DNA of 64,000 bases from Gammaproteobacteria bacterium (GCA_013003425.1 JABDJB010000016.1:26104-90103); one strand, 5' to 3'. Positions 3,545 to 48,348 are shown, counted from the first letter of the stretch. Notes: a model not told the origin generated them from the letters alone. Numbers and translations are program-made.

Positions 3545-4126
3545 TCAGGTACTGATCAGCCCGGTGAATCCCATAAAAGCGAGTGACATTATCCCTGCCG
3601 TGATCATGGCTATGGCGGCGCCACGGAACGGACGAGGTACATCGGCCACGGCTACCCGTTCCCTGATCGCGGCGAACAGGACCAGCACAAGCGAAAACCC
3701 GGCGCCCGCGCCAAACCCGTAGAACACCGAATGCAGGAAACTGTGCGACTCCTGTGCGTTTAGCAGCACGATACCCAGGATTGCACAGTTGCTGGCCACC
3801 AGCGGCAGAAAAATTCCCAGCAGCTGGTGCAGCAAAGGATCGACCTTCAGCACCATAAGCTCGGTGAGTTTCGCCACCGCCGCGATAACAAGTATGAAAG
3901 TGATTATTCGCAGGTAGTCCAGGTCGAGCGGCAGAAGCACGTATCGCTCGACCAGAAAGGCGAGCGCTGCCGCAAGCGTCAAAACGAAAGTCGTGGCAAG
4001 TGACATGCCTATCGCGGTTTCCAGCTTGGCAGATGTACCAAATACCGGGCAAAGACCAAGAAAACGGGTCAGCACCAGGTTATTCACCAGCACTGCACCG
4101 ACCAGAATCAGCAGTAAGTCGTTCAT
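3545..4126 (-). CDS. rnfA: Rnf electron transport complex subunit A
   Basis: 193-aa six-TM protein of the RnfA/NqrE type ([27 protein letters not shown]). Its ATG overlaps the metG TGA (ATGA at 4123..4126). Confidence 0.93.
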
Positions 4127-6129
4127 CGCACCCGCATGCCGGGCGTGGCGCCGCTGTCCGGGCTGACCAGGAATATCTCGCTGTCACCCGGGCCGGCAGC
4201 CAGCACCATGCCCTCGGACGTACCAAAACGCATCTTGCGTGGCTTGAGATTGGCCACGACCACGGTCAGGCGGCCCTCCAGCTGGTGTGGCTCATAGGCT
4301 GTGCGGATGCCGGCAAAAACCGTGCGTTGCCCGTCACCAATATCCAGCTGCAGCCGCAACAGCTTGTCGGCACCGTCAACCAGCTCGGCGCTGACGATCT
4401 TTGCAACGCGCAGGTCGACTTCCAGGAACTGGTCGATACTGATATCGCCGTCCTGTTTTTCCACCGGCGCGGATTTCGCTGCAGGCACGTCGTCAGTTTC
4501 GGTCGACAGCATTTTTTCTACCTGCTCGAGATCCATGCGCCTGATGATCGGCTTGAACTTGTTGACCGGGGCATCAAGCAACGGGGTACCGGCATCGGCC
4601 CAGGTCAACGGGGCGCTGGCAAACAACTCCTCGCTGGCGGCAGCAATGTCTGGCAACACCGGCTTCAAATAGACAATCAGCGTGCGATAAAGATTCATCC
4701 CCTGCGTGCAGACAGCGTGTACTTCCTGCTGCCGCGTTTGATCCTTTATGGCCTGCCAGGGCTTGTGCTCGTCAATGTAACGATTGGCCACGTCGGCCAG
4801 CGTCATGATGCGACGCATCGCCCTTGAATACTCGCGCGCTTCGTAAAGAGCTGCAATTTCGTCACCAGCTGCTGCAAATTGCTCGAACAGCTCGGGCGCT
4901 GGCAATTGTTCGGCCAGTCGGCCGTCGAATTTCCTGCTGATAAAGCCGGCACAGCGACTGGCGATGTTTACCAGCTTGCCGACGACGTCGGAGTTTACGC
5001 GCTGCACAAAGTCCTCGAGGTTGAGGTCTATATCGTCGACCCCTGACCCGAGCTTGGCTGCGTAGTAGTAGCGCAGGTACTCCGGTGAGAGGTTGTCGAG
5101 ATACTGTCGTGCCGTTATGAACGTCCGGCGGCGCTTGGACATCTTTTGTCCGTTTACGGTGAGAAAACCATGCACATAAACAGAGGACGGAATACGAAAC
5201 CCTGCACCGCGCAGTACGGCCGGCCAGAACAGGCAATGGAAGTAGACGATGTCCTTACCGATGAAGTGATAAACCTCGGTGTCGCTTCCAGGCGCCCAGA
5301 AGTCATCGAATTCCAGCTCCGGAGTGCGGTCGCAGAGATTTTTGAAGCTGGCCATATAGCCGACCGGGGCATCGAGCCAGACGTAGAAATAGTGATCGGG
5401 CAGTCCGGGAACGGCAAAGCCGAAGTAGGGCGCATCGCGCGAAATGTCCCAGTCCTGCAGGCCGGCATCGAACCATTCCTCCAGCTTGCGCGCGACGCTG
5501 TCGTGCAGCGTACCAACCCACTGGCGCAGCATCGGGGAAAAGTCCGCGAGGCGAAAAAACAGGTGTTCGGATTCGCGTTCGACCGGGGCAGTACCGGAAA
5601 TAACTGACACGGCATCTTTCAGTTCTGCCGGGCTGTAAGTGGCGCCACACGATTCGCAGCTGTCGCCAAACTGATCGGGAGTATCGCAGTTGGGGCAGGT
5701 GCCGCGCACGTAACGATCCGGCAAAAACATGCCTTCTTTTTCATCGTATGCCTGGACGATGGTGCGCCGGTCAATGTGCCCATTCTGGTCCAGCGTGCGA
5801 AAAATATTCTCCATCAACTCGCGATTTTCATCGGAGTGGGTGGTGTGGTAGTTGTCGAAGCTGATGCCGAAGTCGTCGAAGTCGCGCTGGTGTTCTGCAA
5901 AAAATCGGGCGATCAGCTGTTCCGGCGTAATGCCCTCATCGCGCGCTGCGAGCATGATCGGGGTGCCGTGCGCGTCGTCTGCGCAGACAAATATGCACTG
6001 GTGGCCGCGCAGTCGCTGAAAACGCACCCAGATATCGCACTGGATGTGTTCGACCATATGCCCCAGGTGTAAGGAGCCATTGGCATAGGGCAGGGCCGTC
6101 GTGACCAGGATGCGGCGGTTTTCGCTCAT
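4123..6129 (-). CDS. metG: methionine--tRNA ligase
   Basis: Class I signatures LHLGH and KMSKR, zinc knuckle [18 protein letters not shown], and a C-terminal Trbp111/EMAP-type tRNA-binding domain ([12 protein letters not shown]...). The ORF track opens at GTG 6144. I prefer ATG 6129 ([18 protein letters not shown]) because it matches the usual N-terminal length. Confidence 0.95.
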
Positions 6130-6199
6130 AAATGACACCAGCACCGCATGATGCGGCGCAGCGATTATGCCATGCCGCGCAGGTTTATGCCGCTGTAGC

Positions 6200-7267
6200 T
6201 CAGGCTGCGCCGGGCGGCGCGTAGTCCTTGAAATTCTGCTTGTTGAAGGCTTTCTCGTAGGCAGCTTCGCCGGTGATCATGCGTTGCTGTACCAGCCGTT
6301 TCAGCGCCGAGTCCATGGTCTGCATACCGGACTGGGCACCGGCCTGCATAGTCGTTTCGAGCTGGTCGAGTTTGCCCTGCCGTATCAGGTTGGCGACCGC
6401 CGAGTTGTTGACCAGGATTTCCAGCGCGGCAATACGTCCGCCGCCATCTTTCTTGCGGATCAGCTGCTGCGAAATAACGCCACGCAGTGATGTGGAGATC
6501 ATCGATCGTATATGGGCCTGCTTGTCGGACGGAAAGGTGTTGACGATGCGGTCGATTGTCGGCGGCGCGCCATTCGTGTGCAGCGTACCCATCACAAGTA
6601 TGCCGGTTTCGGCTGCCGTTACCGCGATGCTCATGGTTTCCAGGTCGCGCATTTCGCCCACCAGGATTACATCGGGGTCTTCGCGTAACGCCGAATGCAG
6701 CGCGGCGGCAAAACTCGGTGTGTGGACGCCCACTTCACGCTGGCTGATCAGGCACTGTTTGCGGTCGTGGGTGAACTCGATCGGGTCCTCGATGGTAACG
6801 ATATGGCCCTTTTTCGTCGTATTGATGTGGTCGATCATTGCGGCCAGCGTGGTGGATTTGCCCGACCCGGTCTTGCCGGTCACAAGGATCAGCCCCTGCG
6901 GGTGCTTGCACAGGTCGCGGGCAACGCGTGGCATCTTGAGCTCGTCGAGCGTCAGCGCGGTTTCGGGTATTGCCCGGAACACTGCGCCAAGGCCGTTGAG
7001 GTGACGCAGCACGTTTACGCGAAAACGACCCTTTCCGGGTAGCTCGTAGGCAAAATCCGCGCCTTCGTGTTCCTCAAGTTCCTTGCGTGCCTTTGGCGTC
7101 ATGATGGTATCGAGCGACTGACGCACTTTTTCTGCATCCAGCCGATGCTCGGTCAGCGGCTGCAGTTCGCCGTATTGCCGTATGCGCGGCGGGTCGCCAG
7201 CCATGTAGTGCAGGTCGGAAGCTTCCCGCTCCAGCGTCATGGTCAGCAGATCGCTGATTGTCGCCAT
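6200..7267 (-). CDS. PilT/PilU-family type IV pilus retraction-type ATPase (paralog 2)
   Basis: 355 aa. Walker [22 protein letters not shown], His box [11 protein letters not shown], and [11 protein letters not shown] resembling the PilT AIRNLIRE motif. Its ATG overlaps the upstream TGA (TGATG at 7265..7269). Confidence 0.88.
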
Positions 7268-8373
7268 CAGCCGGCCACCGTGCCCTTGTCGGCACCGGGT
7301 CCACCGGCCAGGTCCTCGTCCGTGACAAAGCGACGAAACGGCTGCTTGTCGCTGGCGTACGAATAGGCATCGTTTGGATCGATCTCTTTGCGCTGTACGG
7401 CATCGAGCAGGGCCTGGTCGAGCTGTTGCATGCCCAGGTGGCGACCGGTTTGCAGCTGGGACGGTATCTGGTGGGTCTGCTCGGTCGATATAAGCTTGCC
7501 GATTGCGCGTGTCATTACCATGATCTCAAGTACTGCCTTGCGGCCACGCATGTCGGCCGTCTTGCACAGTACCTGCGAGATCACGGCATTCAGGTTGGTC
7601 GACAGGAAGCTCTTGGTTTGCTCGCGCAGGTCGCTGGGTAACGCATCGATGATGCGGTCGATACTTTTTACTGCGCCAGTCGTATGCAGTGTGCCGAGCA
7701 CCAGGTGACCGGTTTCGGCTGCCGTCATTGCCATCGATATGGTCTCGGCATCACGCATTTCGCCGACCAGGATGACGTCCGGATCTTCACGCAGCGCCGC
7801 ACGCAGCCCGTCAGCAAAGCTTTCCAGGTGTGTGCCAAGTTCGCGTTGCACAACCTGTGATTTCTTGCTCGGATGCACGAATTCAATCGGGTCTTCCAGG
7901 CTGATGATATTCATCGCCTTGCTGGTATTGATGTAATCGAGCATCGACGCGAGCGTAGTAGATTTACCGGTACCGGTTGCCCCGGTGACCAGGATCATGC
8001 CCTGGTGATACTCGGTCAGGTCCCTGATGACGGGTGGCAAGCCGAGCTTTTCCAGATTCGGGATTTCCGTCGGGATGTAACGAAAGGTTGCCCCCACGCC
8101 GGTTGCCTTGCGGTAAAGGTTGACGCGGAATCTCGCGCCGTCCTCGGTCACATAGGAAAAATCGAGGTCGTTGCCGCCGCCAAACCTGTTCTGCTGATTC
8201 TGCGTGAGGATCTCGTTGACGTAGCTCTCCAGCTCGGTTCCCGAGAGGTCGCGGAACTTGATCGGCATCAGGTCGCCGCTCATCCGCAGCATCGGTGGCA
8301 CGCCGACCGCCAGATGCACGTCTGAACATCCCTGTGCCAGGCCCAGTTTGAGAAACGAATCAATTCTGGCCAC
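7267..8373 (-). CDS. PilT/PilU-family ATPase (paralog 1, more divergent)
   Basis: Walker [33 protein letters not shown]. The AIRNLIRE position is degenerate (RAIGKLISTEQ). I place the start at GTG 8373 (VARIDSFLKLG...), preceded by GGAGGTATACA. The track extension to 8532 has no homology-like sequence and lies inside the kinase gene. Confidence 0.85.
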   Translation of the reverse strand: MARIDSFLKLGLAQGCSDVHLAVGVPPMLRMSGDLMPIKFRDLSGTELESYVNEILTQNQQNRFGGGNDLDFSYVTEDGARFRVNLYRKATGVGATFRYIPTEIPNLEKLGLPPVIRDLTEYHQGMILVTGATGTGKSTTLASMLDYINTSKAMNIISLEDPIEFVHPSKKSQVVQRELGTHLESFADGLRAALREDPDVILVGEMRDAETISMAMTAAETGHLVLGTLHTTGAVKSIDRIIDALPSDLREQTKSFLSTNLNAVISQVLCKTADMRGRKAVLEIMVMTRAIGKLISTEQTHQIPSQLQTGRHLGMQQLDQALLDAVQRKEIDPNDAYSYASDKQPFRRFVTDEDLAGGPGADKGTVAG

Positions 8374-10759
8374 TGTATACCTCCAGCAACGATTCCAGCC
8401 CCTCACGAACTTCGTCCATGCTGGCGGGCCGCTCCATCTTGTCGACAGACATGATCCTGCCTGCCAGCGCAACAACGTCGTCGGGCAGTTTCGGGTTCGC
8501 CTCGCCGATCGGTTTGGCATTGCCCTGGACATGCTGGTACATCACAGCCATGTGATCGCCCTCGGTATAAGGCGGCTTGCCGGTGAGCAATTCGTAGAGG
8601 ATCACGCCGAGGCTGTAGATATCGGCGCGCTGGTCGATTTTTTTGCCGAGGATCTGCTCCGGTGCCATGTACTTGGGCGAGCCGATAACGTAACCGGTCT
8701 TGGTCAGGCCACTGTCACCACCGCCATGCGCGGCGGCAACGCCAAAATCCACCACTTTGACAACACGCTCGTCGTTGACCAGAACATTCGCCGGTTTCAG
8801 GTCACGGTGCACAATTCCCACCTGGTGGGCGGCCGACATGCCGTTGGCGATGTCGGCGGTGATCATCAGTGCGCGGGGGATGTCCAGCGGCTTGCGCGGC
8901 GCCATCTCGGCACTGAGGGCATGCGACGGAAAGTACTCCATGGAGATGGCATATAAGCCGGACAGGTGAACAAAATCGTAGATGCGGATCACATTTTGGT
9001 GCGTGATCTTGCGCGAGAAGCGCAGTTCGTGGACGAAACGCTGCAGCATCTCCTCATCGTCGGCAATAGCCTTGTTGAGGAACTTCAGCACCAGTCGCTC
9101 CGCTACCACCGTGTCTTCGACCAGGATTACGGTGCCGAATGCGCCTTTACCGATCTGCTGGATGAACTGGTAGCGGTTTTCGATGATGTCGCCGGGATTC
9201 AACGCGTTCAGGTCGATCATCGGCGCAGATTTTGCCGCTTCGATAGCCTCATTGGCGTTGATGAACATCGTGTGCGCCGGCTCGACCATTTGCGCGGCCT
9301 TCAGATTCTCTGCAACAGCGGTAGCGGAGAAGCGGGCGTCAAGATCCTCGCGGGCACGTTCAGCGGCGTGAGCCACGTTCTGGTCGGCGTCGGCCGTGAG
9401 GGCATGAATGCGCTCCATTACTGATTCGGCATTCACGTCGTCAGTAATCTTTGCCATCGCGCGCAGGGCTTCAATTCGAACCTCCGCCTCCGGCCGGCCC
9501 AGCAGCGGGGCAATATTGGTCAGCGCCTGCTGATCGGCGAGTACGGCTATCGCGCGCAACGCACTGGGCACTGACTTGGCTTCGCCGCTGAGCATGCCGA
9601 TTATTGCCGGCAGCGCTCGCTTGTCACCGATTTCCGCCAGCGCGTCGGCGGCGCGTTCGCGTACCCACCAGTCATCGTCACGAGTTGCCTCGATCAGGAA
9701 TTTTACGGCGCGCTCATCTTTTGTGGCGTTGAGAATCTCTATTGCGGCGCGCCGGATAGACTCGTCTTTGTCCTTTATGAGCTGCAGCACTGAATCGACA
9801 ACTTTGGGACCGCCGATCTTTGCCAGCGCGTCGGTCGCACGCGAGCGCACCCACCAGTCGCTGTCCTTCAGCGCATCGAGCAGCGTCTTGATGGCGTTAC
9901 TATCGCCGACTTCGTTCAGGACCTCGACGGCCGAGCGCCGTGAATACTCGTTCTCGCTCTGCAGCGCGCCGAGCAAATGCTTGACGGTATCCGGATGGTT
10001 GACCCGGATCATCACATCGACCGCCTTGTTCTGCACCTCGATTTCCGGATCTTCCAGCAGCTTGCCGAGTAAGGAAATATCCAGGCCCTCGGCCATTTTT
10101 GACAGCGCAGACAAGGCCGCCTGGCGTACCAGCTTGCTGCGATCGGTCAGCTGCTTCTGTAATGCCTGTTGCACGTCGCCGCGACGAAAGCGCGACAGGA
10201 TATGAATAATGTGAACTCGCACCATGGCATCCTTGCCAGTCAGCCGGTCGATAAGTTCCGGCACCATGGTGTCGTTGGCCATTTCACCGACCAGCTTCAT
10301 GCAGGCTTCTTTTTTGTTTGGCGCGAGGTCGTAAGCGGCGATCAGCAGCCGGCGGGCATCCACCTTGTCCTTGTGCGCGCTAAGCACCTGGATAAGCGTG
10401 GAGCCAGGGATGTCTTCGTCGTCGAGCAGGTCGAGCAGACGATTGGGATCGTAGGTAGTGCGACTGGTCAGGGCCCAGGCGACACCGGAGACCACGCGCT
10501 GGCTGTCGCTCTTCAGCGCCTCGATATATTCGGGCAGTGTTTTCTCATTGAGCAACTGCGCGAGTATGTCGATGAAGGTAATAGTCTGTTCTTTGTCGGC
10601 CGTGCTGAGCGCCTCGACGACATGACTGACCGCAGCCGGGCCGAGGCCAACGATCTTGTCAGAGATCGCCTTGACGTCAGCCGACTCGTCGCCATGACGC
10701 CGTACGGCAACCAGCTGATCGACAAGTTTCTCGGCCTTGATGCTGCGAAGGAACTTCAT
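8360..10759 (-). CDS. HEAT-repeat (PBS-lyase type) protein with C-terminal Hanks-type Ser/Thr protein kinase domain
   Basis: 799 aa with no TM helix or signal peptide. About the first 500 aa are HEAT_PBS-like repeats (DSDWWVRSRATDALAKIG, DDDWWVRERAADALAEIG, ESIRRAAIEIL). The C-terminal ~275 aa (DNA ~8363..9187) carry a complete kinase core: GKGAFGTV, LVLKF, HRDLKPANVLV, DFG, GSPKYMAPE. Confidence 0.88.
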   Translation of the reverse strand: MKFLRSIKAEKLVDQLVAVRRHGDESADVKAISDKIVGLGPAAVSHVVEALSTADKEQTITFIDILAQLLNEKTLPEYIEALKSDSQRVVSGVAWALTSRTTYDPNRLLDLLDDEDIPGSTLIQVLSAHKDKVDARRLLIAAYDLAPNKKEACMKLVGEMANDTMVPELIDRLTGKDAMVRVHIIHILSRFRRGDVQQALQKQLTDRSKLVRQAALSALSKMAEGLDISLLGKLLEDPEIEVQNKAVDVMIRVNHPDTVKHLLGALQSENEYSRRSAVEVLNEVGDSNAIKTLLDALKDSDWWVRSRATDALAKIGGPKVVDSVLQLIKDKDESIRRAAIEILNATKDERAVKFLIEATRDDDWWVRERAADALAEIGDKRALPAIIGMLSGEAKSVPSALRAIAVLADQQALTNIAPLLGRPEAEVRIEALRAMAKITDDVNAESVMERIHALTADADQNVAHAAERAREDLDARFSATAVAENLKAAQMVEPAHTMFINANEAIEAAKSAPMIDLNALNPGDIIENRYQFIQQIGKGAFGTVILVEDTVVAERLVLKFLNKAIADDEEMLQRFVHELRFSRKITHQNVIRIYDFVHLSGLYAISMEYFPSHALSAEMAPRKPLDIPRALMITADIANGMSAAHQVGIVHRDLKPANVLVNDERVVKVVDFGVAAAHGGGDSGLTKTGYVIGSPKYMAPEQILGKKIDQRADIYSLGVILYELLTGKPPYTEGDHMAVMYQHVQGNAKPIGEANPKLPDDVVALAGRIMSVDKMERPASMDEVREGLESLLEVYSGQN

Positions 10760-10952
10760 CGCGGTCCCTGAATCTCCATTTGCTGTTCGCCTGGCGGCGC
10801 GGTCGCCGCGGTGCCGGATCGCTGAGTCCTGTTTGCAGCGATCGGTATTCTACATGGTATCGCTAAGTCATTGTTCGTGAAAGGCTGGGATTATCGCGGT
10901 CCGGCATTTCGCTGCTGGCCGGGCCTGCCTGCAGGCTGATTGACTTTACCGG

Positions 10953-12089
10953 GTGCGGCGTCTCAAATGCGCGGATCAGAAAGATCTATCAGCAGGACTC
11001 GTGGAAAATACCGAACAACAGATTGAAAGCGCCCTGGCGGGCTATGTCGACCCGTATACCGGCAGTGACCTGGCCAGCAGTGGCGCAATTGAGAATATTA
11101 CATTCACTGACGGCACTGCAGAGCTGCTAATAAAGCTCGGTTATGCGGCTGGCCGCCATCATGACGCGCTCGTAGCGGCGCTGAAGGCACCGCTGCTTGA
11201 GCTCGATGCAGTCGACAATGTCCGTATCGAGATCAGAACGGAGATTACGCCGCATGCCGTTCAGGGCCAGCTCAAGCCTATGCCCGGTGTCAGCAACGTA
11301 ATTGCAGTGGCTTCAGGCAAGGGCGGCGTAGGAAAGTCAACGACAGCGGTTAACATTGCGCTGGCATTCGCTGCCGATGGTGCACGAGCAGGCATCCTGG
11401 ACGCCGATATCTATGGTCCGAGCCAGCCGCGCATGCTGGGCAAGCGCGGTGAACGCCCGGAAAGCCGTGATGGCAAAAGTCTCGAGCCGGTCAGCGCGCA
11501 CGGTATCGCCAGCATGTCGATCGGCTACCTGATCGATGAGGACCAGCCGATGGTCTGGCGGGGGCCAATGGTGACACAGGCGCTCAGCCAGCTGATCAAT
11601 GACACCAACTGGGGCGAACTGGATTACCTGGTGGTGGATATGCCACCCGGCACCGGCGACACGCAGTTGACCTTGTCCCAGCGGGTGCCGGTCAGCGGTG
11701 CCGTGATCGTTACCACGCCTCAGGATATTGCCCTGCTCGATGCCCGCAAGGGCCTGCGGATGTTCGAGAAAGTGGACGTGAACGTGCTGGGTGTAGTCGA
11801 GAACATGTCGACTCATATCTGTTCGCAGTGTGGGCACGAGGAGCCAGTATTCGGGACCGGGGGTGGCGAACGAATGGCGCAGGAATACGAAGTGCCGTTC
11901 CTCGGCGGGCTGCCGCTCGACATACGGATCCGTGAGCAGGCAGATTCCGGCAATCCAACTGTGGTCGCAGAGCCGGACAGTGAGCTGGCGCAGGCGTATT
12001 TTGACGTTGCGCGGCGTATCGGCGCACGGCTGGCACTGCAGGCGCGTGATTACAGCCGGCTGTTTCCGAAAATAGTAGTGGAGGAGTAG
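10953..12089 (+). CDS. apbC: Fe-S cluster carrier ATPase Mrp/ApbC
   Basis: [11 protein letters not shown]-loop, CSQCGHEE Cys motif and an N-terminal DUF59-like region. The start may instead be GTG 11001 ([12 protein letters not shown]...). Confidence 0.92.
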
Positions 12090-12091
12090 CG

Positions 12092-12658
12092 GTGACGATC
12101 AAGGCGGACTCGTGGATTAAACGAATGGCGCTTGAGCACGGCATGATCGAACCGTTCGAGCCGGCACAGGTGCGCAGCGGCGGCGACGGCAAGGTTATTT
12201 CTTATGGCGTGTCGAGCTATGGTTACGACGTGCGTTGCGCGCCGGACTTCAAGATTTTCACTAACATCAACACCGCAGTAGTGGACCCCAAGCAGTTCGA
12301 CGAGAAGAGCTTCGTCGATATGGCCGGCGACACCTGTATTATCCCGCCCAATTCGTTTGCCCTGGCGCGGACTGTCGAGTATTTCCGCATCCCGCGAAAT
12401 GTACTGACGATTTGTCTCGGTAAAAGCACCTACGCGCGCTGCGGCATTATTGTCAACGTTACGCCGCTGGAGCCGGAATGGGAGGGGCACGTGACCCTCG
12501 AGTTTTCAAACACCACGCCGTTACCGGCCAGGATTTATGCCAACGAGGGAGTCGCGCAGATGATCTTCATTGAGTCGGATGTGGCCTGCGACGTGTCCTA
12601 TGCCGACAGGGCAGGCAAGTACCAGGGCCAGACCGGGGTGACGCTGCCGCGTTCGTAA
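12092..12658 (+). CDS. dcd: dCTP deaminase
   Basis: 188 aa: [22 protein letters not shown]...SYGYDVRC...[31 protein letters not shown]. Confidence 0.94.
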
Positions 12659-19500: not shown

Positions 19501-21138
19501 CTACGCCGTGCTGTTGAGCATCGTGCCGCTGGCGATGGCGGAATCGCCATACGCCGCGCCATAGTTGGCCAGCGCGCCACGCAGCCCCGCCATCAATCCG
19601 CCGAGAAACAGCTGCGATGCGCCCAGGTTATGGCGGATGCTGGACGTCAGCTCCTGCCGGTCGATGCGACCGAAACGGTGGCCGACCGGCGATTCGAGGT
19701 CGAACAGCAGCCCGAGGCGAGAGTCGCCGTCCGGCGTGTTGGCACGCAGAGAGCCGAGAATGTCATTACGCAGTCTGTCCAGCGATTCGCTGCGAAGGGT
19801 ATTTTCCGCCGGATGAAATACATCGTTTATCAGGTCAATCGTCGCGTCGACTGAGTCAGCAATGCGATAGCTGCGCGAGCGCGAGACTCCGCTGCTGCCG
19901 ATCGCGTTGTAGGTTTTTTCCGCCACACCCAGCGCATCGAAAAACTGCGTGCCCTGGTCATCGATGCTTAGCGCCATGCCTTCGATGTCGGCCTTCAGGG
20001 AGATGCGTTGTCCGCCCTGCACGAGGCTGGCGGTGATATCGATGTCTGCGTCATTGATGATTGATACAACATCCGACAGCGAATCAGTAGTGACGTCGAT
20101 ATCGAAGTTGTAACCGTTGATCAGCAGGCCACCGCTGCTGACGCTGCTGAAGCGCGTGGTCTGGTCGAGGGCAATGTCGGCCTCGCTGTCCAGTCCCGGG
20201 CTACTGGACACACCGTCGAGTTTTACCGCAGAGAGGAACCCGGAGTCATCGTTTGACAGCACTATGTCACTGGCCGACCCGGGTGTCCGGCGGGTGAGCC
20301 TGACCGTTTCGCTGTTGGTGTCGAAGACCGCATTGACATCCGCTGCCGACGCACTGATTCGGCTCAATACGTCGTTTATCGAGTCAGAATCATTTACATT
20401 GATCGTCACGCCATTGATGTCGAAAGACCCGGCACTGACCGATTCGCCCAGATCGAAATTAGGCCGGTCGTTGCGGGTGCCATCGAATGGGTTGTCAGGA
20501 TCGACCGCGCTGGGGGTGTTCTCGTAGACGTCGAGATAGAACTCGTCACCCTGTACCAGCGTGCCGGCACCAAGCTGGAATTTCAGCCCGTTGCCAATAT
20601 TGTATTGCTTATCCAGCGCGTGCCATGGCTGGACCTTGATAGTCTTGATCTTGCTTCCCGAGCCATCGTAAACCTTGACCTCAATTTTCGAGGCACCGTG
20701 CACGCCCGTCCTGGTGACCAGGAAACGCAAGGAGTCGTCGCCATTCTCGCCGTTATAGACATTGGAGATTTCCGGTAGCGCATCCGAGCCGCCCGGGCCG
20801 GTAAAGACGGGCCCGAATGGTGAATAGGACGTCGTTGCCGTGTTGACTTCTTCGCTGGTGTTGAGCGTGGTTGCGGTCTGGGTGGTATTGAGGCCAAGGC
20901 TTTGCGATGTGACTGCTGCCTTGCCCGAGCTGGTACGGACCCGCGCCCGCGTCAGCAGGTCGTCGAGCTGGTTCAGGGACTTTGTGAGCTGGCTGACGCG
21001 ACGGTCGTTCAGGCCGAGCTGGGCCGATTCGGCCGGCGATACCGCTGGAGTAATGCCCGTCCCTGCCGATAAGTCGGAGCGGGAAGGTCTGACCTGGAGA
21101 TACCGGACCAGGTTATCGAAGTGGAAGCCGACCTGCAT
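19501..21138 (-). CDS. hypothetical protein with two FliD (HAP2)-like tandem repeats
   Basis: 545 aa, rich in Asp/Ser/Thr/Asn/Gly, with no signal peptide or TM helix. The two repeats are SVSAGSFDINGVTINVNDSDSINDVLSRISA... and SVSSGGLLINGYNFDIDVTTDSLSDVVSIIND.... AAGGAAG lies upstream of the ATG. Confidence 0.6.
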   Translation of the reverse strand: MQVGFHFDNLVRYLQVRPSRSDLSAGTGITPAVSPAESAQLGLNDRRVSQLTKSLNQLDDLLTRARVRTSSGKAAVTSQSLGLNTTQTATTLNTSEEVNTATTSYSPFGPVFTGPGGSDALPEISNVYNGENGDDSLRFLVTRTGVHGASKIEVKVYDGSGSKIKTIKVQPWHALDKQYNIGNGLKFQLGAGTLVQGDEFYLDVYENTPSAVDPDNPFDGTRNDRPNFDLGESVSAGSFDINGVTINVNDSDSINDVLSRISASAADVNAVFDTNSETVRLTRRTPGSASDIVLSNDDSGFLSAVKLDGVSSSPGLDSEADIALDQTTRFSSVSSGGLLINGYNFDIDVTTDSLSDVVSIINDADIDITASLVQGGQRISLKADIEGMALSIDDQGTQFFDALGVAEKTYNAIGSSGVSRSRSYRIADSVDATIDLINDVFHPAENTLRSESLDRLRNDILGSLRANTPDGDSRLGLLFDLESPVGHRFGRIDRQELTSSIRHNLGASQLFLGGLMAGLRGALANYGAAYGDSAIASGTMLNSTA

Positions 21139-21835: not shown

Positions 21836-23551
21836 TTAGCTGTTCACCGCCAGCTTGCTGTCGAGCCAGGCGTCCAGCTCCGCCGCGGGTATGTTTTCGT
21901 TGTCGTCATCGCGCCGGCCCCGGCACTCGATCGTGCCGGCATCGAGGCCGCGCTCGGCAACGACCAGTCTCACGGGTATTCCGAGCAGCTCGCAGTCGGC
22001 AAATTTCACGCCCGGCCTGAGGTCGCGGTCGTCAATGATGACCTCGTAACCCTGCTCGCCGAGGCGAGCATAAAGTTCGTTTGCCGCGGAGCAAACACGT
22101 TCGGACTTGGCCATGTTGATGGGTATGATCATGATCTGATACGGGGCTATAGCGGCGGGCCAGATAATTCCGTTGTCATCATGATTCTGCTCGATGGCTG
22201 CTGCCACGATGCGCGTCACACCTATGCCATAGCAGCCCATCGGCATGGCGATGCTCTTGCCGTCGCGGTCGAGCACGGTGGCATCCATTGGCTTGCTGTA
22301 CTTGGTCTCCAGCTTGAAGATGTGTCCCACCTCGATGCCGCGGGCGATCTCCAGTGTGCCCTTGCCGTCGGGACTGGCTTCACCGGCGGTGACATTGCGC
22401 AAATCAGCACATTCGGGTTGCGGCAGGTCCCGTTCCCAGTTGACGTTGCGAAGGTGATATCCGTCTTCGTTGGCGCCGCAGACAAAGTCGCTCAGCTGTG
22501 CCGCCGCGTGATCAGCGATTACCGGGCAGGCCAGGCCCAACGGCCCCACCGAGCCCGGGCTGCTGCCGGCCGCCTGCTGCACCTGCGACGCAGACGCCAT
22601 GCGCAGCGGGTCAGCAACGCCGGGCAGTTTGGCGGACTTTATTGCATTGAGCTCATGGTCGCCGCGCAGTACCAGCGCGACAACATCGTCATCGCTGCCA
22701 GCGACGAACAGGGTTTTTACACAGCTGGCCGCCGGCACGCCGAGCGCCTGGCTTACCTGCTCGATCGTTTGTGCCCCCGGTGTGGCAACTTTTTCCAGCG
22801 CTGCTTCCGGTTCAGGACGCGGGCCCGGTGGTGGTGGCGCTGCTGCTGCTTCCATATTGGCCGCGTAGTTGCTTGCGTTTGAGTAAACAATTGCATCTTC
22901 GCCGGAGTCAGCCAGCACGTGGAACTCATGTGACACTTCGCCGCCGATAGCGCCGCTGTCGGCTTCCACTGCGCGAAATTTCAGGCCGCTGCGTTGAAAG
23001 ATGCGCGTATACGCCTGGTACATGTCCTGGTACGTCTGGTGCAGCGAGTCGGTATCAATATGAAATGAGTATGCGTCCTTCATCACGAATTCACGGGCAC
23101 GCATCACACCGAAGCGCGGGCGGATCTCGTCGCGGAACTTCGTTTGAATCTGGTAAAAAGTGACGGGCAGCTGTCGATAGCTGCGCAGCTCGCGTCGGGC
23201 GATGTCAGTGATGACTTCCTCATGCGTCGGGCCGTAGCAGAATTCGCGCTGATGGCGGTCGGTGAAGCGCAGCAGCTCCGGTCCGTAGAAATCCCAGCGG
23301 CCGGACTCGTGCCACAGCTCACCGGGCTGCACGCTTGGCAGCACGAGTTCGAGGCCCCCGGCACGATCCATTTCCTCGCGCACAATGCGCTCTACCTTGC
23401 GCACCACGCGCAGGCCGAGCGGCAGCCACGAGTAAATTCCGGCAGCCAGCTTGCGGATCAGGCCGGCACGCAGCATCAGCTGGTGGCTGATAATCTCGGC
23501 GTCAGCCGGTGCTTCCTTCTGGGTGGCGATGGGCAGGGCGGTCAGGCGCAT
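21836..23551 (-). CDS. proS: proline--tRNA ligase
   Basis: Starts at ATG 23551 ([46 protein letters not shown]) and gives 571 aa, the bacterial type with an editing insertion. The track ORF to 24139 is an artefactual N-terminal extension. Confidence 0.95.
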
Positions 23552-23852
23552 GAAGATTCCTCGCGGGAAAGGCGCATAGTATAGAAAACTTGTGTCCGAA
23601 GTCGTTGATTTTCGTGACCGGGACGAGTAGATTTCCGGCACTTTTTTGCGGGCCAGCCGGCCCGGACCTGCCGATGGCGATATTTTCAACAGCGATTCCG
23701 ATCCACGCCAGACCTGCAGCCGCAGGGCTGCAGTGCCGCGGTGGCAAGCCGGGACGCGTGTATGCCTGCTGCCCATGCAGCCGGACAGCGACCTGCCGGG
23801 CGGCAGTGGTATCGCGCACAATGCGGGTTGACGGTGAGGAGACGGAGCGCCG

Positions 23853-24476
23853 ATGAGACGCAACAGTTCTATTTTTATCGCCCGTGACGGCTGGTTGTTC
23901 ATGGTCGGCGCGATACTGCTGCTGATCGTCGCCATTCGTACGCACAGCATGGCGCTTGGCTTGTTCGCGCTGGTGTTGCTGGTGTTACTGATCCTGCTGT
24001 TTCGTGATCCGCCGCGGGAAATTCCCTCTGTTCCGCTGGCGGTCGTTGCACCCGTTGATGGCCGCGTCATTGCGGTCGCGTTTACCGACAAGGGAGTGCT
24101 CGAGCGCGAGGCCGCGCACATCACGATCCGGGTAGACAATTTTGGTGCCTACACTGCACGTAGCCCGATCGAGGGCAAGGTACTCAACCTGCAGGACAAC
24201 TTTGCTGCCGGGTCGCGTCTGACCGGGGTCAACGGGCTGTGGGTGCGCACCGACGAGGACGATGATGTAGTCGTATTGATGAAAGCACCGCGCATGTTCA
24301 GGCCAAAGTCCTTTATCAACTACGGCGAGCGTCTGGGCCAGGGGCAGCCCTACGGCTTTGTACGATTGACGCGCCGGGTTGAAGTTTACGTGCCGCTTAA
24401 CAGTCGCGTTGCCGTGGCCGTTGGCGACTACGTGCGTGCCGGCAACGATATACTGGCGCGGCTGGTACACGACTAG
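23853..24476 (+). CDS. phosphatidylserine decarboxylase-related protein (short form, atypical processing site)
   Basis: 207 aa with two N-terminal TM helices, then [12 protein letters not shown]. The C-terminal block [14 protein letters not shown] aligns with the short-form consensus G-x-I-R-F-G-S-R-V-D-V-Y-L-P, but has T-R in place of G-S. Confidence 0.75.
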
Positions 24477-25348: not shown

Positions 25349-26044
25349 GTGCCTGCTCCCGCAACGGACAAGCTGGCGCTCCTGCATGCCATGGGTGTAC
25401 GGGTGTGGTTATCGCGCAATGCGCCGGCACGACCTGCGGACGAAGTGCAGGGTACGCCAGCAACCTGTACAGGTGCGGCTGCGGCCGGACTTGACTGGAG
25501 TGATCTGGAGACGGCCGTAGCGCAATGTCGTGCCTGTGATCTGCACCGCGGGCGTACTCAGACCGTGTTTGGAGTCGGTAACCAGGATGCCCGGTGGATG
25601 ATCATCGGCGAGGCACCCGGGGCGGAAGAAGACCGGCGTGGTGAGCCATTCGTTGGCCGGGCCGGTCAGCTGCTCAATGCCATGCTGCTGGCGGCCGGAT
25701 ACAAGCGTCACGAAGTTTATATCGCCAACATCGTCAAGTGCCGCCCGCCGAACAACCGCGATCCGCGACCGGAGGAGGCAACAGCCTGCAGCAGTTTCCT
25801 CGCGCGGCAGATAGAACTGGTGCGGCCCCGGCTGATCCTTGCAGTTGGCAGGGTCGCCGCGCAGCGGCTGCTGCAGACCGATACACCGGTCGGCAAAATG
25901 CGTGGCCGGCTGTACCATTACGGTGACGAACCCGGGGTTCCCGTGGTCGTAACCTATCATCCGGCTTACCTGCTGCGTTCGCCAGGTGCCAAGGAAAAGG
26001 TCTGGCAGGATTTGCTGTTCGCGCTGGAGCAGGGTGACGGATGA
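25349..26044 (+). CDS. uracil-DNA glycosylase, family 4
   Basis: [30 protein letters not shown] and HPAYLLR motifs. Confidence 0.9.
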
Positions 26045-26520
26045 GCGCCGCGCCGCAAGCTGTGGCAATCAACATCCGCCCAATGCGCCCGGCAGATATT
26101 ATGGAAGTGCATCGCATCGAGGCCAGGTCTTATCCGTTTCCCTGGAGTATCGGGATATTTCGCGACTGCCTGCAGGCCGGCTACCTGTGCCGGGTGCTTG
26201 ATACAGCTGACGGTCTGGCCGGTTACAGCGTGGTGTCAGTCGCGGCCGGTGAGGCGCATATCCTGAACCTCTGCATTCGTCAGCGGTGTCGCCGCCAGCA
26301 ACTCGGTAATCGGTTTTTGCAACACGTAATCGACGAAGTCAGACAGCTTGGCGTCATGCGGGCCATTCTCGAGGTGCGGCCGTCAAACGAAGCGGCCATC
26401 GGGCTGTACCAAAGCGCCGGTTTTACCCGGATTGGTTCGCGCCGTGATTACTATCCGGCGGTAACCGGCCGCGAGGACGCTCTGGTGCTGGCGCGTGAGC
26501 TGGGCCCGGCGACGGGCTGA
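26041..26520 (+). CDS. rimI: ribosomal-protein-alanine N-acetyltransferase
   Basis: 159-aa GNAT protein: IRPMRPADIMEVHRIE...RRQQLGNRFLQHV...LEVRPSNEAAIGLYQSAGF. Confidence 0.85.
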   Translation: MSAAPQAVAINIRPMRPADIMEVHRIEARSYPFPWSIGIFRDCLQAGYLCRVLDTADGLAGYSVVSVAAGEAHILNLCIRQRCRRQQLGNRFLQHVIDEVRQLGVMRAILEVRPSNEAAIGLYQSAGFTRIGSRRDYYPAVTGREDALVLARELGPATG

Positions 26521-27785: not shown

Positions 27786-29780
27786 TCAGACGCGCAGGGC
27801 ACGAACCGCCCGGCGCAGGTCCGCTATGCGACTGTCGTTGTCTTCCGGGAAATATCGCAGCGATACATACAGGCGGGTGACTTCCTCCACCGGTGCCGCG
27901 ATTGCCGGATGCGCCAGCATGACACGGCGGGCGAAATCGAGCGGGCCCTCGTGATCCGCGCGGGCACCGGCGACACGTTCGAGCTTGCGGCAAAAACGGG
28001 CGTAGATGCGGGCGCACGGGTCGGCCGGTGAGGGCCGCGACTGCCACAACATGTGAGCTGCAATAATCGCCATAACTGCGGTTATCAGTCCGATCATGGC
28101 CAGCAGCATTTTCTGCAAATTCGGACGTTTCATGCCCAGAGCACGCAGCAGGCTACGCTGTTCCTGGCGGCTGAAGCCAAGCACCCACTGGTTCCAGCCG
28201 TTGTTCACGGCGTCCCAGCCAAACTGCAGCTGGCGCAGCCAGTCGTAGCTGCGAAACAGGCCGGGCAGCTGTTCGCCGTCTGGCAGGGCGCCGGCCACGC
28301 CGGATTCGACCCGCTCGGGGGCAACGGCAGCGGTAGGATCTACCCGAATCCAGCCGCGACCGTCCAGCCACACTTCGCTCCACGCATGTGCGTCCGACTG
28401 ACGCACAGTCAGGTGACGGCTGAACGGATTGAGTTCGCCACCCTGGTAACCGAGCACCACACGCGCTGGAACGCCGGCGGCGCGCATCATCAGGGTAAAC
28501 GCCGAGGCATAGTGCTCGCAGAAACCTCGCCGCGTATTGAACAGAAAGTCATCGACGGGGTCGGTTCTGCTCAGGGCGGGCGGCGTCAGCGTGTAGACAA
28601 ATTCCTGTACACGGAACTGGCGCAGGATGCGTTCTACAACTGCGGCCGGGTCGCCGGTTTCAGCCAGCCATTGCTGTGCCAGCGCCTGGGCGCGGCGGTT
28701 GGTGCGCTGTGGAAACTGCCGGTCTCGCTGCAGGGTCCAGTGATTCGGTCCGACATCGGCATTGGCGCGATGCTGTGGCCAGGATTGCAGCCGATACTGG
28801 AAAAGCTGCGTCACCGGTTCGGCACGCACCAGGCGCAGGTCGCTGGTCATGTAGGAGCGTCGCGGCAGATCGCCCGGGTCAGTCTGTTCGAGGGCAAACA
28901 GCCAGTTGCGATAGTTTGGTTCCAGCGTGACTTCGTAGCTGACCGATGGGCCGATCAGTTCGATACTGGATTCCTGAACCTCGCGGTCATGCTGCTGAAA
29001 AATAGACCAGCTGCGCCCGTCAAAGTTGCTTAGCACCGGACCGCGCCAGTAGCGCTGTTCCGGTGGTGGCGGATCGTCATCAAACGCGACGCGAAAGGCG
29101 ACGGCATCGGACTGCAGCAGCCGCGTAATACTGCCAGGCTGCATCGTGTCACTGAGGCCGGTGAGCGCCGTGTTGTCGCCGCGGGGTATGGACCAGAACG
29201 GGCCCGACATCCGCGGAAACAGTACAAAGGCTATCAGCATGACCGGCACTGCGTGCGCCAGCAGTATGCCGGAGCGTGCGAACGCCTTGCGCCACGGCAT
29301 GGTTGGCGCGGCACTGCTTACCTGCGAAAGTGCGGTAGTGATCAGCCAGATCGTTGGGAATGCATAGAGTGCAATCATGATCGACTGACCGAACAGAAAT
29401 TGCGTGACTATCAGGAAATAACTGATGAGCAGCAAAACGATTAGATCACGCACCGACTTTGTTTCCGTCAGTTTGAGCGCGGCCATAACCACCAGCAGTG
29501 TGCTGCCGGCATCGAGACCGGTGATGGTGCCGTAGCTGACGAAGACACCGGCAAATCCGGCAAACGCCAGCACCAGCCGCACCACGGTTCCCGGTAACGC
29601 CAGGCGGCCCTGCTGCGCTGCCAGCCGCCAGAGCATGGTTGTCACCATCAGGCCAGGCGACCATAGCGGCAGGTGCAGCAGATGCGGGCCGGCAGCAGCC
29701 GCCAGGCAGGCAAGCGTCCACAGCAGTCTGGGTGTGTCCAGTGCGCGCGCGTTCACATCAAAGCCAGTGCGGTCAGGCAA
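27786..29780 (-). CDS. tgpA: transglutaminase TgpA family protein (DUF3488 membrane domain plus transglutaminase core)
   Basis: N-terminal multi-TM region and core RRGFCEHYASAFTLMMRAAGVPARVVLGYQGGE...DAHAWSEVW (Cys-His-Asp type). The start may instead be GTG 29756, which forms a GTGA overlap with DUF58. Confidence 0.88.
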   Translation of the reverse strand: MPDRTGFDVNARALDTPRLLWTLACLAAAAGPHLLHLPLWSPGLMVTTMLWRLAAQQGRLALPGTVVRLVLAFAGFAGVFVSYGTITGLDAGSTLLVVMAALKLTETKSVRDLIVLLLISYFLIVTQFLFGQSIMIALYAFPTIWLITTALSQVSSAAPTMPWRKAFARSGILLAHAVPVMLIAFVLFPRMSGPFWSIPRGDNTALTGLSDTMQPGSITRLLQSDAVAFRVAFDDDPPPPEQRYWRGPVLSNFDGRSWSIFQQHDREVQESSIELIGPSVSYEVTLEPNYRNWLFALEQTDPGDLPRRSYMTSDLRLVRAEPVTQLFQYRLQSWPQHRANADVGPNHWTLQRDRQFPQRTNRRAQALAQQWLAETGDPAAVVERILRQFRVQEFVYTLTPPALSRTDPVDDFLFNTRRGFCEHYASAFTLMMRAAGVPARVVLGYQGGELNPFSRHLTVRQSDAHAWSEVWLDGRGWIRVDPTAAVAPERVESGVAGALPDGEQLPGLFRSYDWLRQLQFGWDAVNNGWNQWVLGFSRQEQRSLLRALGMKRPNLQKMLLAMIGLITAVMAIIAAHMLWQSRPSPADPCARIYARFCRKLERVAGARADHEGPLDFARRVMLAHPAIAAPVEEVTRLYVSLRYFPEDNDSRIADLRRAVRALRV

Positions 29781-30721
29781 CGGTCACGGTGCGCCGGGCC
29801 CACCTCCGGCGCAAAGCTTTCACCGGGCAGGCGCAGGCCCCACGCGGTGTCACTCAGGTGGGCATCGACAATCCACCGGCTCAGTTGCGCCAGCCGTGCT
29901 TCGAGTCCCATCTGATCGAGGCTGTCAAAATCAAACCAGTGCGATGCCACGTCGGTTCCGGCGTACTGTTTGACCAGCAGCTCTTCGCTGCGGGCGAAAG
30001 ATTTCCATGCGATGTGTCTTGGTGGGTCGCCCGGTCGATAGTTACGCAGGCCGGCGAAGTCGGCATCGCCGGCGCTGTCGTCACTGGCGCCGCCGGTGTC
30101 GGTGTGTTGCGGTGGTGGCGTCAGGCCTGCCGGTGCGGGACGGGGATACACCACTGTATGCCAGCGTGGATGAATCCACGCCCAGCAATGGAACAGGCCG
30201 AGCGGAAAGCTGGTAAAGACGCTGAAGCGGTCCAGTTCGAGACGTCCGCGACGTGTAGTCGGCACTTCAAGGACCAGCGTCTCGTGTTCGCCCGGTTCAA
30301 GATGAATAGTTTGCGTTACATGGTCATGGCAACGCAGGGTCAGGCCCAGCCGAGGTACGGCAGTGTCGTTTACCAGCGTGATGCGAAATTTTGCCCGGTC
30401 GCCGGCAAAAGCGGGTTCGTCTCCGCCATAGCGAATTTTCAGACCGGCCAGGTTGCGATGGCAGTGGTGCATCGTTACGAGCGCGATGCCGGCCATCAGG
30501 AATGTTACCGCCAGGCCGAGGCTGTTGTTGTAGTTCATCGCACCGACCAGCATTGCGATGATCAGGAAGCCAAAGGCAATGCCCTGGGCGTTGGGCAGGA
30601 TGTAGATGCGACCGCTGTGCAGTCGCAGCTGGTCGTCGTCGCTGCCCTGACGGCGCTTTGCCCAGCGCCGCACGCGCTCGCGCAGTCCGGGGAGTCTCTG
30701 CTGTGGGCTGGCTGTTGCCAC
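29753..30721 (-). CDS. DUF58 domain-containing protein
   Basis: 322 aa with an N-terminal TM hairpin and FAGLRNYRPGDPPRHIAWK, the DUF58 hallmark. Lies between moxR and tgpA. Confidence 0.85.
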   Translation of the reverse strand: MATASPQQRLPGLRERVRRWAKRRQGSDDDQLRLHSGRIYILPNAQGIAFGFLIIAMLVGAMNYNNSLGLAVTFLMAGIALVTMHHCHRNLAGLKIRYGGDEPAFAGDRAKFRITLVNDTAVPRLGLTLRCHDHVTQTIHLEPGEHETLVLEVPTTRRGRLELDRFSVFTSFPLGLFHCWAWIHPRWHTVVYPRPAPAGLTPPPQHTDTGGASDDSAGDADFAGLRNYRPGDPPRHIAWKSFARSEELLVKQYAGTDVASHWFDFDSLDQMGLEARLAQLSRWIVDAHLSDTAWGLRLPGESFAPEVGPAHRDRCLTALALM

Positions 30722-30727
30722 CGCGGG

Positions 30728-48264: not shown

Positions 48265-48348
48265 ACAGGATCGGAATTATGGTTAAATTTGGCCCGTTTT
48301 GCCAAAGACCCAGTTCTCATTTCGGCCGGCCCGCCAGCCGCTGAATCG

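Follow-up and report, generated by a model that had tools for sequence, protein, structure and literature searches.

A conserved gene block encoding a HEAT-repeat Hanks kinase and two PilT-family ATPases in Gammaproteobacteria, and differently fused counterparts in other phyla

Few known molecular machines are as strong as the motors of the PilT family, and the inputs known to act on them are cyclic di-GMP (c-di-GMP), PilZ or FimX-type proteins, and response regulators. In addition to the type IVa pilus ATPases PilT and PilU, several bacteria have further PilT paralogues with no clear role, such as PilT2 in Neisseria, PilT1-4 in Geobacter and MXAN_0415 in Myxococcus xanthus. In the latter organism, MXAN_6705 and MXAN_6706 are conserved across the Myxococcales, the N-terminus of MXAN_6705 has been described as disordered, and deletion of MXAN_6706 results in a partial S-motility defect (PMC13584747). 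Response regulators with a PATAN domain were reported to bind the pilus motor in Synechocystis (10.1101/2021.06.11.447907). Here, we analyzed a stretch of 64,000 nucleotides (nt) from a gammaproteobacterium (GCA_013003425.1, JABDJB010000016.1:26104-90103; hereafter, the window), in which three consecutive genes on the minus strand encode a HEAT-repeat::Hanks Ser/Thr kinase of 799 amino acids (aa) (8360..10759; NCBI NNF60251.1, "protein kinase") and two PilT-family ATPases, which are referred to as ATPa (7267..8373; 368 aa; NNF60250.1) and ATPb (6200..7267; 355 aa). The public annotation of such genes consists of generic names only.

The three-gene module resembles each of the described systems in part. 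Like PilT and PilU (represented by the structures 3JVU and 9N32), ATPa and ATPb belong to the PilT/PilU family, carry its fold-defining motifs and are encoded by tandem genes, as in pilT-pilU. They differ from PilT and PilU in forming clades of their own, in the His box of ATPb and one helix of ATPa (see below), and in having a HEAT solenoid linked to them in every case and a Hanks kinase in most; a retraction role is known for PilT and PilU only. The extra PilT paralogues, MXAN_6705/MXAN_6706 included, are likewise PilT-like proteins beside a canonical motor, but none has been described with HEAT repeats or a partner kinase, and the N-terminus described for MXAN_6705 is disordered, not a solenoid. 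The PATAN regulators follow the same concept, in which a separate domain docks on a pilus-type hexameric ATPase; however, their adaptor fold is different, they receive their input from two-component or c-di-GMP signalling and not from a Hanks kinase, and their target is described as the pilus motor. Finally, the kinase shares its fold, catalytic motifs and activation-loop threonines with PknB-type kinases, such as Mycobacterium tuberculosis PknB and Staphylococcus aureus Stk1, but lacks their transmembrane segment and PASTA repeats, and its kinase domain is C-terminal, behind a 480-aa solenoid. Full-text literature searches retrieved no paper combining PilT with HEAT repeats or Hanks kinases, in agreement with an earlier reading of this DNA made from the sequence alone (hereafter, the sequence-only reading), which knew of no characterised system with such an architecture. 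The component families are familiar, but the conserved module and its alternative wirings appear to be undescribed.

Features of the kinase and the two ATPases

Approximately residues 1-480 of the kinase protein (9320..10759) form a HEAT/PBS-lyase-type alpha-solenoid of about 15 helical hairpins, as indicated by Pfam HEAT_2 matches (E-value 6e-79; seven stretches over this region) and by an AlphaFold2 (AF2) model. A flexible linker (residues 484-504; 9247..9309) leads to the Hanks kinase domain (residues ~520-799; 8363..9202), which matched Pfam Pkinase (PF00069) at residues 530-781 with an E-value of 4.7e-50 and 170.9 bits against a cut-off of 31.7. The motifs GKGAFGTV (537-544), VLKF with K559, HRDLKPANV (651-659, with HRD at 651-653), DFG (671-673), LTKTG in the activation loop (685-689) and SPKYMAPE (694-701, with APE at 699-701) were located, so that Pfam and the motif positions agree with the sequence-only reading, in which about 500 aa of HEAT repeats were followed by a complete C-terminal Hanks core. 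The catalytic motifs were invariant in 120 of 120 homologues, and with all catalytic residues strictly conserved the kinase is apparently active. Full-length homologues number in the thousands (~795 aa; 51–86% identity). The protein had been proposed to be cytoplasmic, and no segment hydrophobic enough to span a membrane was found in it (maximum KD19, 1.39).

In the AF2 model, the predicted local distance difference test score (pLDDT) was 81 overall, ~90 over the solenoid and <50 in the linker, and the predicted template modelling score (pTM) was 0.53. The kinase domain was PknB-like (template modelling score, 0.82–0.88), and the activation loop was disordered. Because of the low linker pLDDT and the pTM, the solenoid and the kinase domain do not appear to be held in a fixed mutual arrangement. 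The profile for PASTA kinases (Stk1/PknB equivalog, NF033483) matched the kinase domain only, with 258 bits against a cut-off of 450. Scores against the phycobilisome HEAT proteins were also below the equivalog cut-offs (NblB, 93.6 versus 300; CpcE, 83.5 versus 330; CpcF, 43 versus 220), and the resemblance to these proteins is one of repeats only.

Both ATPases exceeded the curated cut-off of TIGR01420, "PilT/PilU family type 4a pilus ATPase" (319.1 bits; profile of 343 positions), with whole-protein scores of 428.1 bits for ATPa and 454.4 bits for ATPb and the whole profile covered in each. The Walker A motif (G..G.GKST, residues 131-139; GATGTGKST in ATPa and GKTGSGKST in ATPb), the Asp box (EDPIE, 160-164), the atypical Walker B motif with the catalytic Glu (199-208) and the gamma-phosphate histidine of TLHT (H230) occupy the same positions in the two proteins, confirming the earlier statement that the Walker and His-box motifs are kept in both. 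In its complete form the His box (AETGH...TLHT) contains two histidines. Both are present in ATPa (H223 and H230); in ATPb the first is replaced by I223, and H230 is kept. The residues known to be needed for ATP hydrolysis are therefore retained, and both ATPases are apparently active but non-equivalent. They had also been described as longer than classical PilT; this is correct, but the difference is modest (355 and 368 versus ~344 aa). The label "retraction-type" applied to them denotes family membership, not demonstrated function.

The AIRNLIRE motif is a hallmark of retraction PilTs. The equivalent helix of ATPa is modified (AIGKLISTEQTHQIPS, residues 290-305) and reads AIGKLIST, with 4 of 8 positions kept, as expected from the sequence-only reading, according to which ATPa had lost this motif. 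The consensus of the helix in the ATPa clade is AI[GA]KLIx[T/S]DQ[T/S]HQIP; in 67 of 71 orthologues the Glu of canonical PilT is replaced by Thr or Ser, and another hydroxyl residue, three positions further, is invariant. The corresponding helix of ATPb is AVANLIRQ (5 of 8 positions kept), and its orthologues have the form A[VI]xNLIRQ.

The best PDB match of both proteins was Pseudomonas aeruginosa PilT (3JVU; 309 bits for ATPa and 365 bits for ATPb). The scores against PilU (9N32) were lower, 243 and 277 bits, respectively, and neither ATPase therefore looks like PilU. ATPb is 53% and ATPa 46% identical to P. aeruginosa PilT, and the two are 46% identical to each other; representatives that grouped with P. 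aeruginosa PilT are 65–75% identical to it. The sequence-only reading had suggested placing both proteins relative to PilT. In a neighbour-joining (NJ) tree of 90 ATPase domains (100 bootstraps), ATPa and ATPb formed separate clades, each with 100% bootstrap support, outside the P. aeruginosa PilT group.

Conservation of the gene block and HEAT::PilT-like fusions in other phyla

A scan of one genome per species identified a relative of the kinase in 348 species-level genomes, and the best 80 loci of these 348 carriers were examined by tblastn with six window proteins as queries. All 80 were from metagenome-assembled genomes (MAGs) assigned to Steroidobacteraceae, Steroidobacterales, Woeseiaceae, "Chromatiales", "Lysobacterales" or plain Gammaproteobacteria. 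ATPa was found in 77 loci and ATPb in 71, and the remainder (3 and 9 loci, respectively) end at a contig edge; the order kinase-ATPa-ATPb was kept in every locus with a long enough contig. The adjacency of the kinase and pilT-like genes, which the sequence-only reading had considered worth a survey, is not confined to one strain, and throughout a large clade of Gammaproteobacteria the three genes have been passed on jointly. The usual map consists of dcd and apbC on one strand and the kinase gene, ATPa, ATPb and usually metG on the other. Median identities to the window proteins were 71% for ATPa, 67% for ATPb, 61% for ApbC, 60% for methionyl-tRNA synthetase (MetRS) and 54% for the kinase; the higher values of the ATPases suggest that they are under stronger constraint than the adjoining MetRS. 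Five loci (L011, L021, L038, L047 and L069) had no apbC match, with dcd directly upstream of the kinase gene, and no metG match was found within L021 and L073. The flanks are thus less fixed than the three-gene block. The kinase-ATPa gap in the relatives ranged from -14 to +317 nt and was mostly 7–25 nt, indicating that tight linkage is conserved and translational overlap is not. Translational coupling had been claimed for these genes; the overlaps are present in the window, but they are local to this genome, since the gaps vary in relatives.

The same operon, HEAT::kinase followed by two PilT-like genes, was detected in a more distant lineage (L088 and L090) in a metagenome scan seeded with P0129, an ATPase that is sister of the ATPa clade. 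The kinases there are 35–38% and the ATPases ~51–55% identical to the window proteins, and the L090 operon is not located beside apbC or metG. L094 also carries the module, defined here as a HEAT solenoid of ~500 aa followed by a His-intact PilT-like ATPase and one without the first His-box histidine, with a Hanks kinase encoded in the same operon; 71 of the related genomes have it complete. An apparent ATPa-ATPb fusion in L027 (724-aa open reading frame (ORF)) was rejected because a stop codon separates the two genes.

ATPa was further compared with 1.84 billion 50%-identity cluster representatives, of which the nearest 150 were analyzed. Only a few represented the ATPa clade itself, and a set of longer proteins was found alongside. 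When HEAT regions were recognised with Pfam and with our own profile of the kinase-family solenoid, 12 of the 150 proved to be HEAT::PilT-like fusions of 830–1000 aa, none of which has a kinase domain according to Pfam. Their annotation does not go beyond "PilT/PilU family type 4a pilus ATPase". A search with one of them, P0165, yielded more than 100 full-length relatives of ~920 aa, and the source names of the fusions include Myxococcota, Bradymonadia, Vicinamibacteria (Acidobacteriota) and "Deltaproteobacteria", as well as unclassified bacteria. Neighbourhoods were analyzed at 11 distinct fusion loci. A second, unfused PilT-like gene (353–365 aa) lies directly downstream of the fusion gene in all 11, with overlaps or gaps of less than 20 nt, and in 9 of the 11 a protein with a C-terminal Hanks kinase domain comes next; one of these nine has a TPR protein and a short kinase as separate genes. 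Kinase-bearing loci of the fusion type include L081-L087 and L170-L172. The fusions (for example, P0165, P0346 and P0311) have the solenoid, the partner set and the ATPase order in common with the window module, but they carry the solenoid on the ATPase, the kinase is last in the operon and has a TPR-like N-terminal region, and they belong to other phyla. The same four domains are thus linked in other phyla with different fusion points.

With a profile of the window-family kinase, the module kinases of the fusion loci scored 154–214 bits and an unrelated kinase in one locus 73 bits, which, with this single protein as the control, is suggestive of a shared kinase type across the arrangements. 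The solenoids of the kinase and of the fusion are similar in length and were aligned in register by hhalign over 431 columns with a score of 446, compared with 281, 260 and 166 for shifted alignments. The AF2 model of P0165 (pLDDT 87; pTM 0.51) contains a solenoid at residues 5-548, a nine-residue, low-confidence linker at 553-561 and a PilT fold.

The first His-box position, which corresponds to P. aeruginosa H222, distinguishes the two ATPases of each arrangement. It is His in 70 of 70 ATPa proteins and Ile in 68 of 68 ATPb proteins; similarly, it is His in 99 of 99 recognisable fused ATPase domains and Val, Thr, Ser, Leu or Ile in 12 of 12 unfused partners. The second His-box histidine, Walker A, the Asp box and Walker B with the catalytic Glu were kept in every aligned protein. 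In both arrangements, the gene for the His-intact ATPase precedes that for the substituted one and directly follows HEAT-coding DNA. It is this signature, together with the gene order, that suggests a correspondence of ATPa to the fused ATPase and of ATPb to the unfused partner. The gamma-phosphate contact has been assigned to the second histidine (H229/H230) (10.1101/672212), so that substitution of the first need not abolish catalysis. The first histidine of PilB (H413) is located at an inter-subunit contact around T411 (PMC5424180), and by analogy the coupling between subunits is likely to be altered where ATPb and the unfused partners carry the substitution.

Additional proteins and genes were noted in these searches. 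Other adaptors on PilT-like ATPases include a WD40 propeller::PilT protein (937 aa) and DUF4388::PilT-PilT (P0122, 1024 aa), in which DUF4388 is, we assume, the PATAN domain; PilT-PilT tandems of 720–740 aa were also found (other adaptors or tandem fusions: P0147, P0122, P0123-P0125, P0128 and P0131). P0145 and P0162 are PilT-like ATPases with Pro/Gln/Trp-rich, apparently disordered N-termini of 420–470 aa and Leu at the first His-box position. A link between MXAN_6705/MXAN_6706 and the module was looked for and not established: P0145 is from Candidatus Xenobia, its long-N-terminus relatives in Hyalangium and Archangium are solitary genes with neither a partner ATPase nor a kinase, and MXAN_6704 is a GNAT acetyltransferase. 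At two fusion loci the third gene is of another kind: a cyclic nucleotide monophosphate-binding acetate kinase/phosphate propanoyltransferase fusion in L159 (4721-7042) and a 602-aa ORF with no Pfam match in L164 (5165-6970). A GGDEF-EAL gene abuts the fusion gene in L081/L082, its last base being the first of the fusion gene. In L170 (3074-11247), genes for a small PilZ protein and an FHA::PrsW-protease lie upstream of the module and an FHA::EAL phosphodiesterase gene directly follows the kinase gene, which hints at a phospho-threonine reader and a link to c-di-GMP.

Interpretation of the module

On balance, we lean towards the view that the kinase, ATPa and ATPb constitute one conserved cytoplasmic module, with a PilT-like motor of two paralogues that would be docked by the solenoid and controlled by the kinase. 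The sequence-only reading had regarded the three genes as one functional unit, and the order kept in the 80-genome set, the distant lineage L088/L090 and the recurrence across phyla strongly support this; its suggestion that the HEAT solenoid may scaffold the ATPases is favoured by the HEAT::PilT fusions. The solenoid of ~500 aa would be the arm by which the ATPases are docked. Its covalent attachment to the N-terminus of the His-intact ATPase in other phyla would be expected if it associates with that ATPase (a Rosetta-stone argument); in the window it is part of the kinase protein, which it would recruit to the motor. From their strict co-occurrence and complementary His boxes, the two paralogues are postulated to act together, either in a mixed ring or as two cooperating hexamers, similar to the dependence of PilU on PilT. 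The kinase would autophosphorylate on the invariant LTKTG loop and phosphorylate the motor or its target, thereby providing an on/off switch, for which the Thr/Ser-substituted AIRNLIRE helix of ATPa is a candidate site. Since both ATPases are members of the PilT/PilU family, the likeliest output would be that an accessory motor of the retraction type controls the dynamics of type IV pili.

Whether its target is the type IV pilus or otherwise, the module may be read as old and multi-phylum. We propose more tentatively, and with somewhat less than even confidence, that it represents an unrecognised ancient and widespread machine (Pseudomonadota, Myxococcota, Acidobacteriota and others). This machine would be a heteromeric PilT-like motor that combines a standard subunit with one whose inter-subunit contact at the His box is altered; it would be recruited by the solenoid and gated by threonine phosphorylation, and it would act either as a control layer for pilus retraction or as a non-pilus drive.

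Several observations weigh against the docking and control of a motor by the solenoid and the kinase. The interaction and the phosphorylation are predicted from comparison, and a fusion indicates functional linkage, not necessarily direct binding. Packing of the solenoid on the catalytic domain was sought in the AF2 models of the kinase and of P0165, but the linkers were disordered and neither model (pTM 0.53 and 0.51) placed the solenoid confidently relative to the kinase or the ATPase. If every protomer carries a solenoid of ~550 aa, docking beneath the pilus platform might be obstructed, which would point to another target. The kinase is not obligatory, because two of the 11 fusion loci (L159 and L164) encode HEAT::PilT and the partner ATPase without an adjacent kinase. 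Orthology of the ATPases between the two arrangements, which was sought in the NJ tree and given up, is also unsupported: the families were resolved, but the deep nodes had bootstrap values of ≤15%, and the weak topology placed ATPa with the unfused partners, contrary to the His-box signature. Cross-scoring with hidden Markov models was uninformative, as the ATPb profile scored higher on nearly everything. Finally, no type IV pilus gene was found near the module. When 48 other window ORFs were scanned with Pfam, no pilin, PilB/C/M-Q, FHA or PP2C domain was detected, as the sequence-only reading had stated, and in the precomputed Pfam annotation of nine annotated fusion loci the PilZ gene of L170 was the only type IV pilus gene.

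These last results bear on a second explanation, namely that the module is a self-contained non-pilus machine, a PilT-like hexameric motor with a solenoid adaptor under Ser/Thr phosphorylation control, with substrates such as a different fibre, a secretion/uptake platform or protein remodelling. We consider this rather unlikely. The lack of pilus genes near the annotated loci and the housekeeping neighbourhood are in its favour, but as pilT and pilU normally lie apart from the other pil genes, the absence of pil neighbours carries little weight. The N-terminal extensions of at least 100 aa in 85 of the 150 nearest ATPa representatives, those with WD40 and DUF4388 included, suggest repeated re-targeting by adaptors, and AIRNLIRE is altered throughout the ATPa clade. 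However, ATPb and the unfused partners keep an AIRNLIRE-like helix, a PilZ gene lies directly upstream of the module in L170, and no gene for an alternative platform is conserved beside the module.

A third explanation, that ATPa and ATPb are the ordinary PilT and PilU of this clade and that the kinase is a neighbour regulating other things or one of several twitching inputs, is improbable in our estimation. That both exceed the PilT/PilU family cut-off and have P. aeruginosa PilT as their best solved relative would fit such an assignment, but their scores against PilU are lower than those against PilT, and both fall into fully supported clades of their own. NCBI names ATPb "type IV pilus twitching motility protein PilT", and its 53% identity to P. 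aeruginosa PilT equals that of functional Geobacter PilT; the true PilT-group representatives, however, reach 65–75%, compared with 53% and 46% here. The divergent ATPase is encoded first and the more PilT-like one second, the reverse of pilT-pilU. Metagenomes commonly contain tandem PilT-like pairs that lack both HEAT repeats and a kinase, and Woeseiaceae MAGs have been reported to contain PilT, PilU, PilI and PilJ (PMC12175321). Chance adjacency does not, however, explain why linkage with HEAT repeats and a Hanks kinase recurs over phyla with different fusion points.

We rejected, as very improbable, an anti-phage defence system or mobile island between mrp and metG, although the module interrupts a gene pair adjacent in Escherichia coli and the PADLOC profiles PD-T4-6 and mad6 match the kinase (E-values down to 5e-77), because these matches cover the generic kinase domain only (residues ~513-795), the NCBIfam equivalog scores are low (mad6, 162 versus 460; PglW (BREX), 98 versus 990), the ATPases match no defence profile better than an E-value of 4e-7, GC content is flat over the module region, no integrase, repeat or variable cargo was found in the scanned window ORFs, and synteny of the block and its flanks over 80 genomes at 51–89% identity indicates vertical descent in a housekeeping region.

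Gene junctions, surrounding genes and significance

The coordinates and order of the three ORFs between mrp and metG given by the sequence-only reading, as well as both of its gene overlaps, were reproduced on re-reading the sequence. At the first junction (8360..8384, minus strand), the kinase stop codon TGA (8360..8362) lies inside ATPa, whose GTG start (8371..8373) overlaps the end of the kinase gene by 14 nt and is preceded by GGAGG (8380..8384), 6 nt upstream. This GTG is the preferred start, because the GGAGG, the start of the homologue P0129 (MPRIDAFLKLG) and the 368-aa NCBI product NNF60250.1 agree on it. At the second junction (TGATG, 7265..7269, minus strand), the ATPa TGA (7267..7269) and the ATPb ATG (7265..7267) have one base in common.

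Upstream of the kinase gene, a divergent intergenic region of 193 bp (10760..10952) presumably contains the promoter of the module; a scan gave no noteworthy consensus sigma-70 site or terminator in it, and nothing exceeded the shuffled expectation. On its other side lie apbC (mrp; 10953..12089, plus strand) and dcd (12092..12658, plus strand), both divergent from the module. The metG gene (4123..6144, minus strand) is co-oriented with the module and begins 55 bp downstream of ATPb, with rnfA/B/C/D beyond; no terminator was found in this 55-bp gap. The mrp and metG genes of E. coli K-12 are immediately adjacent and divergent, as the sequence-only reading had stated. Its description of the module as wedged between the two genes is right as to location, but the arrangement is clade-wide and does not represent a recent insertion. 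The rest of the window is of housekeeping character and includes pur genes, hda, proS, a class I aminoacyl-tRNA synthetase gene, holC, pepA, lptFG, pcnB, folK, panBC, mutL, miaA, hflXKC, purA and rnr.

Elsewhere in the window, a 545-aa ORF (19501..21138, minus strand) has a coding-like GC content at third codon positions of 0.73 and no Pfam match even at an E-value of 1e-5, and smaller ORFs without a Pfam match are located at 25409..26068, 29753..30721, 41078..42004 and 48246..48881. The prolyl-tRNA synthetase ORF (21836..24139, minus strand) comprises 767 aa when read from its first possible start; its Pfam core domain is not reached until residue 292, so that translation probably starts well downstream. 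A three-gene cluster at 27786..31699 (minus strand) encodes a MoxR-type AAA_3 ATPase, an unannotated 322-aa protein and a TgpA-like transglutaminase membrane protein. At 46382..48264 (minus strand), a PPK2 polyphosphate kinase gene is directly followed by a gene for a cyclic-nucleotide-binding::GGDEF diguanylate cyclase, and the two overlap by 4 nt.

The module is conserved from soil Acidobacteriota to marine-sediment Gammaproteobacteria. Woeseiaceae and Steroidobacteraceae, among the groups that carry it, have been reported to be widespread in sediments (PMC7082342), and the module is therefore likely to be environmentally common. Its alternative fusion points provide a ready prediction of binding partners. 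If the proposed control of a PilT-like motor by the kinase is true, Ser/Thr phosphorylation would be added as a control principle for PilT-family motors, and a function would be provided for some of the extra PilT genes that are annotated simply as PilT.

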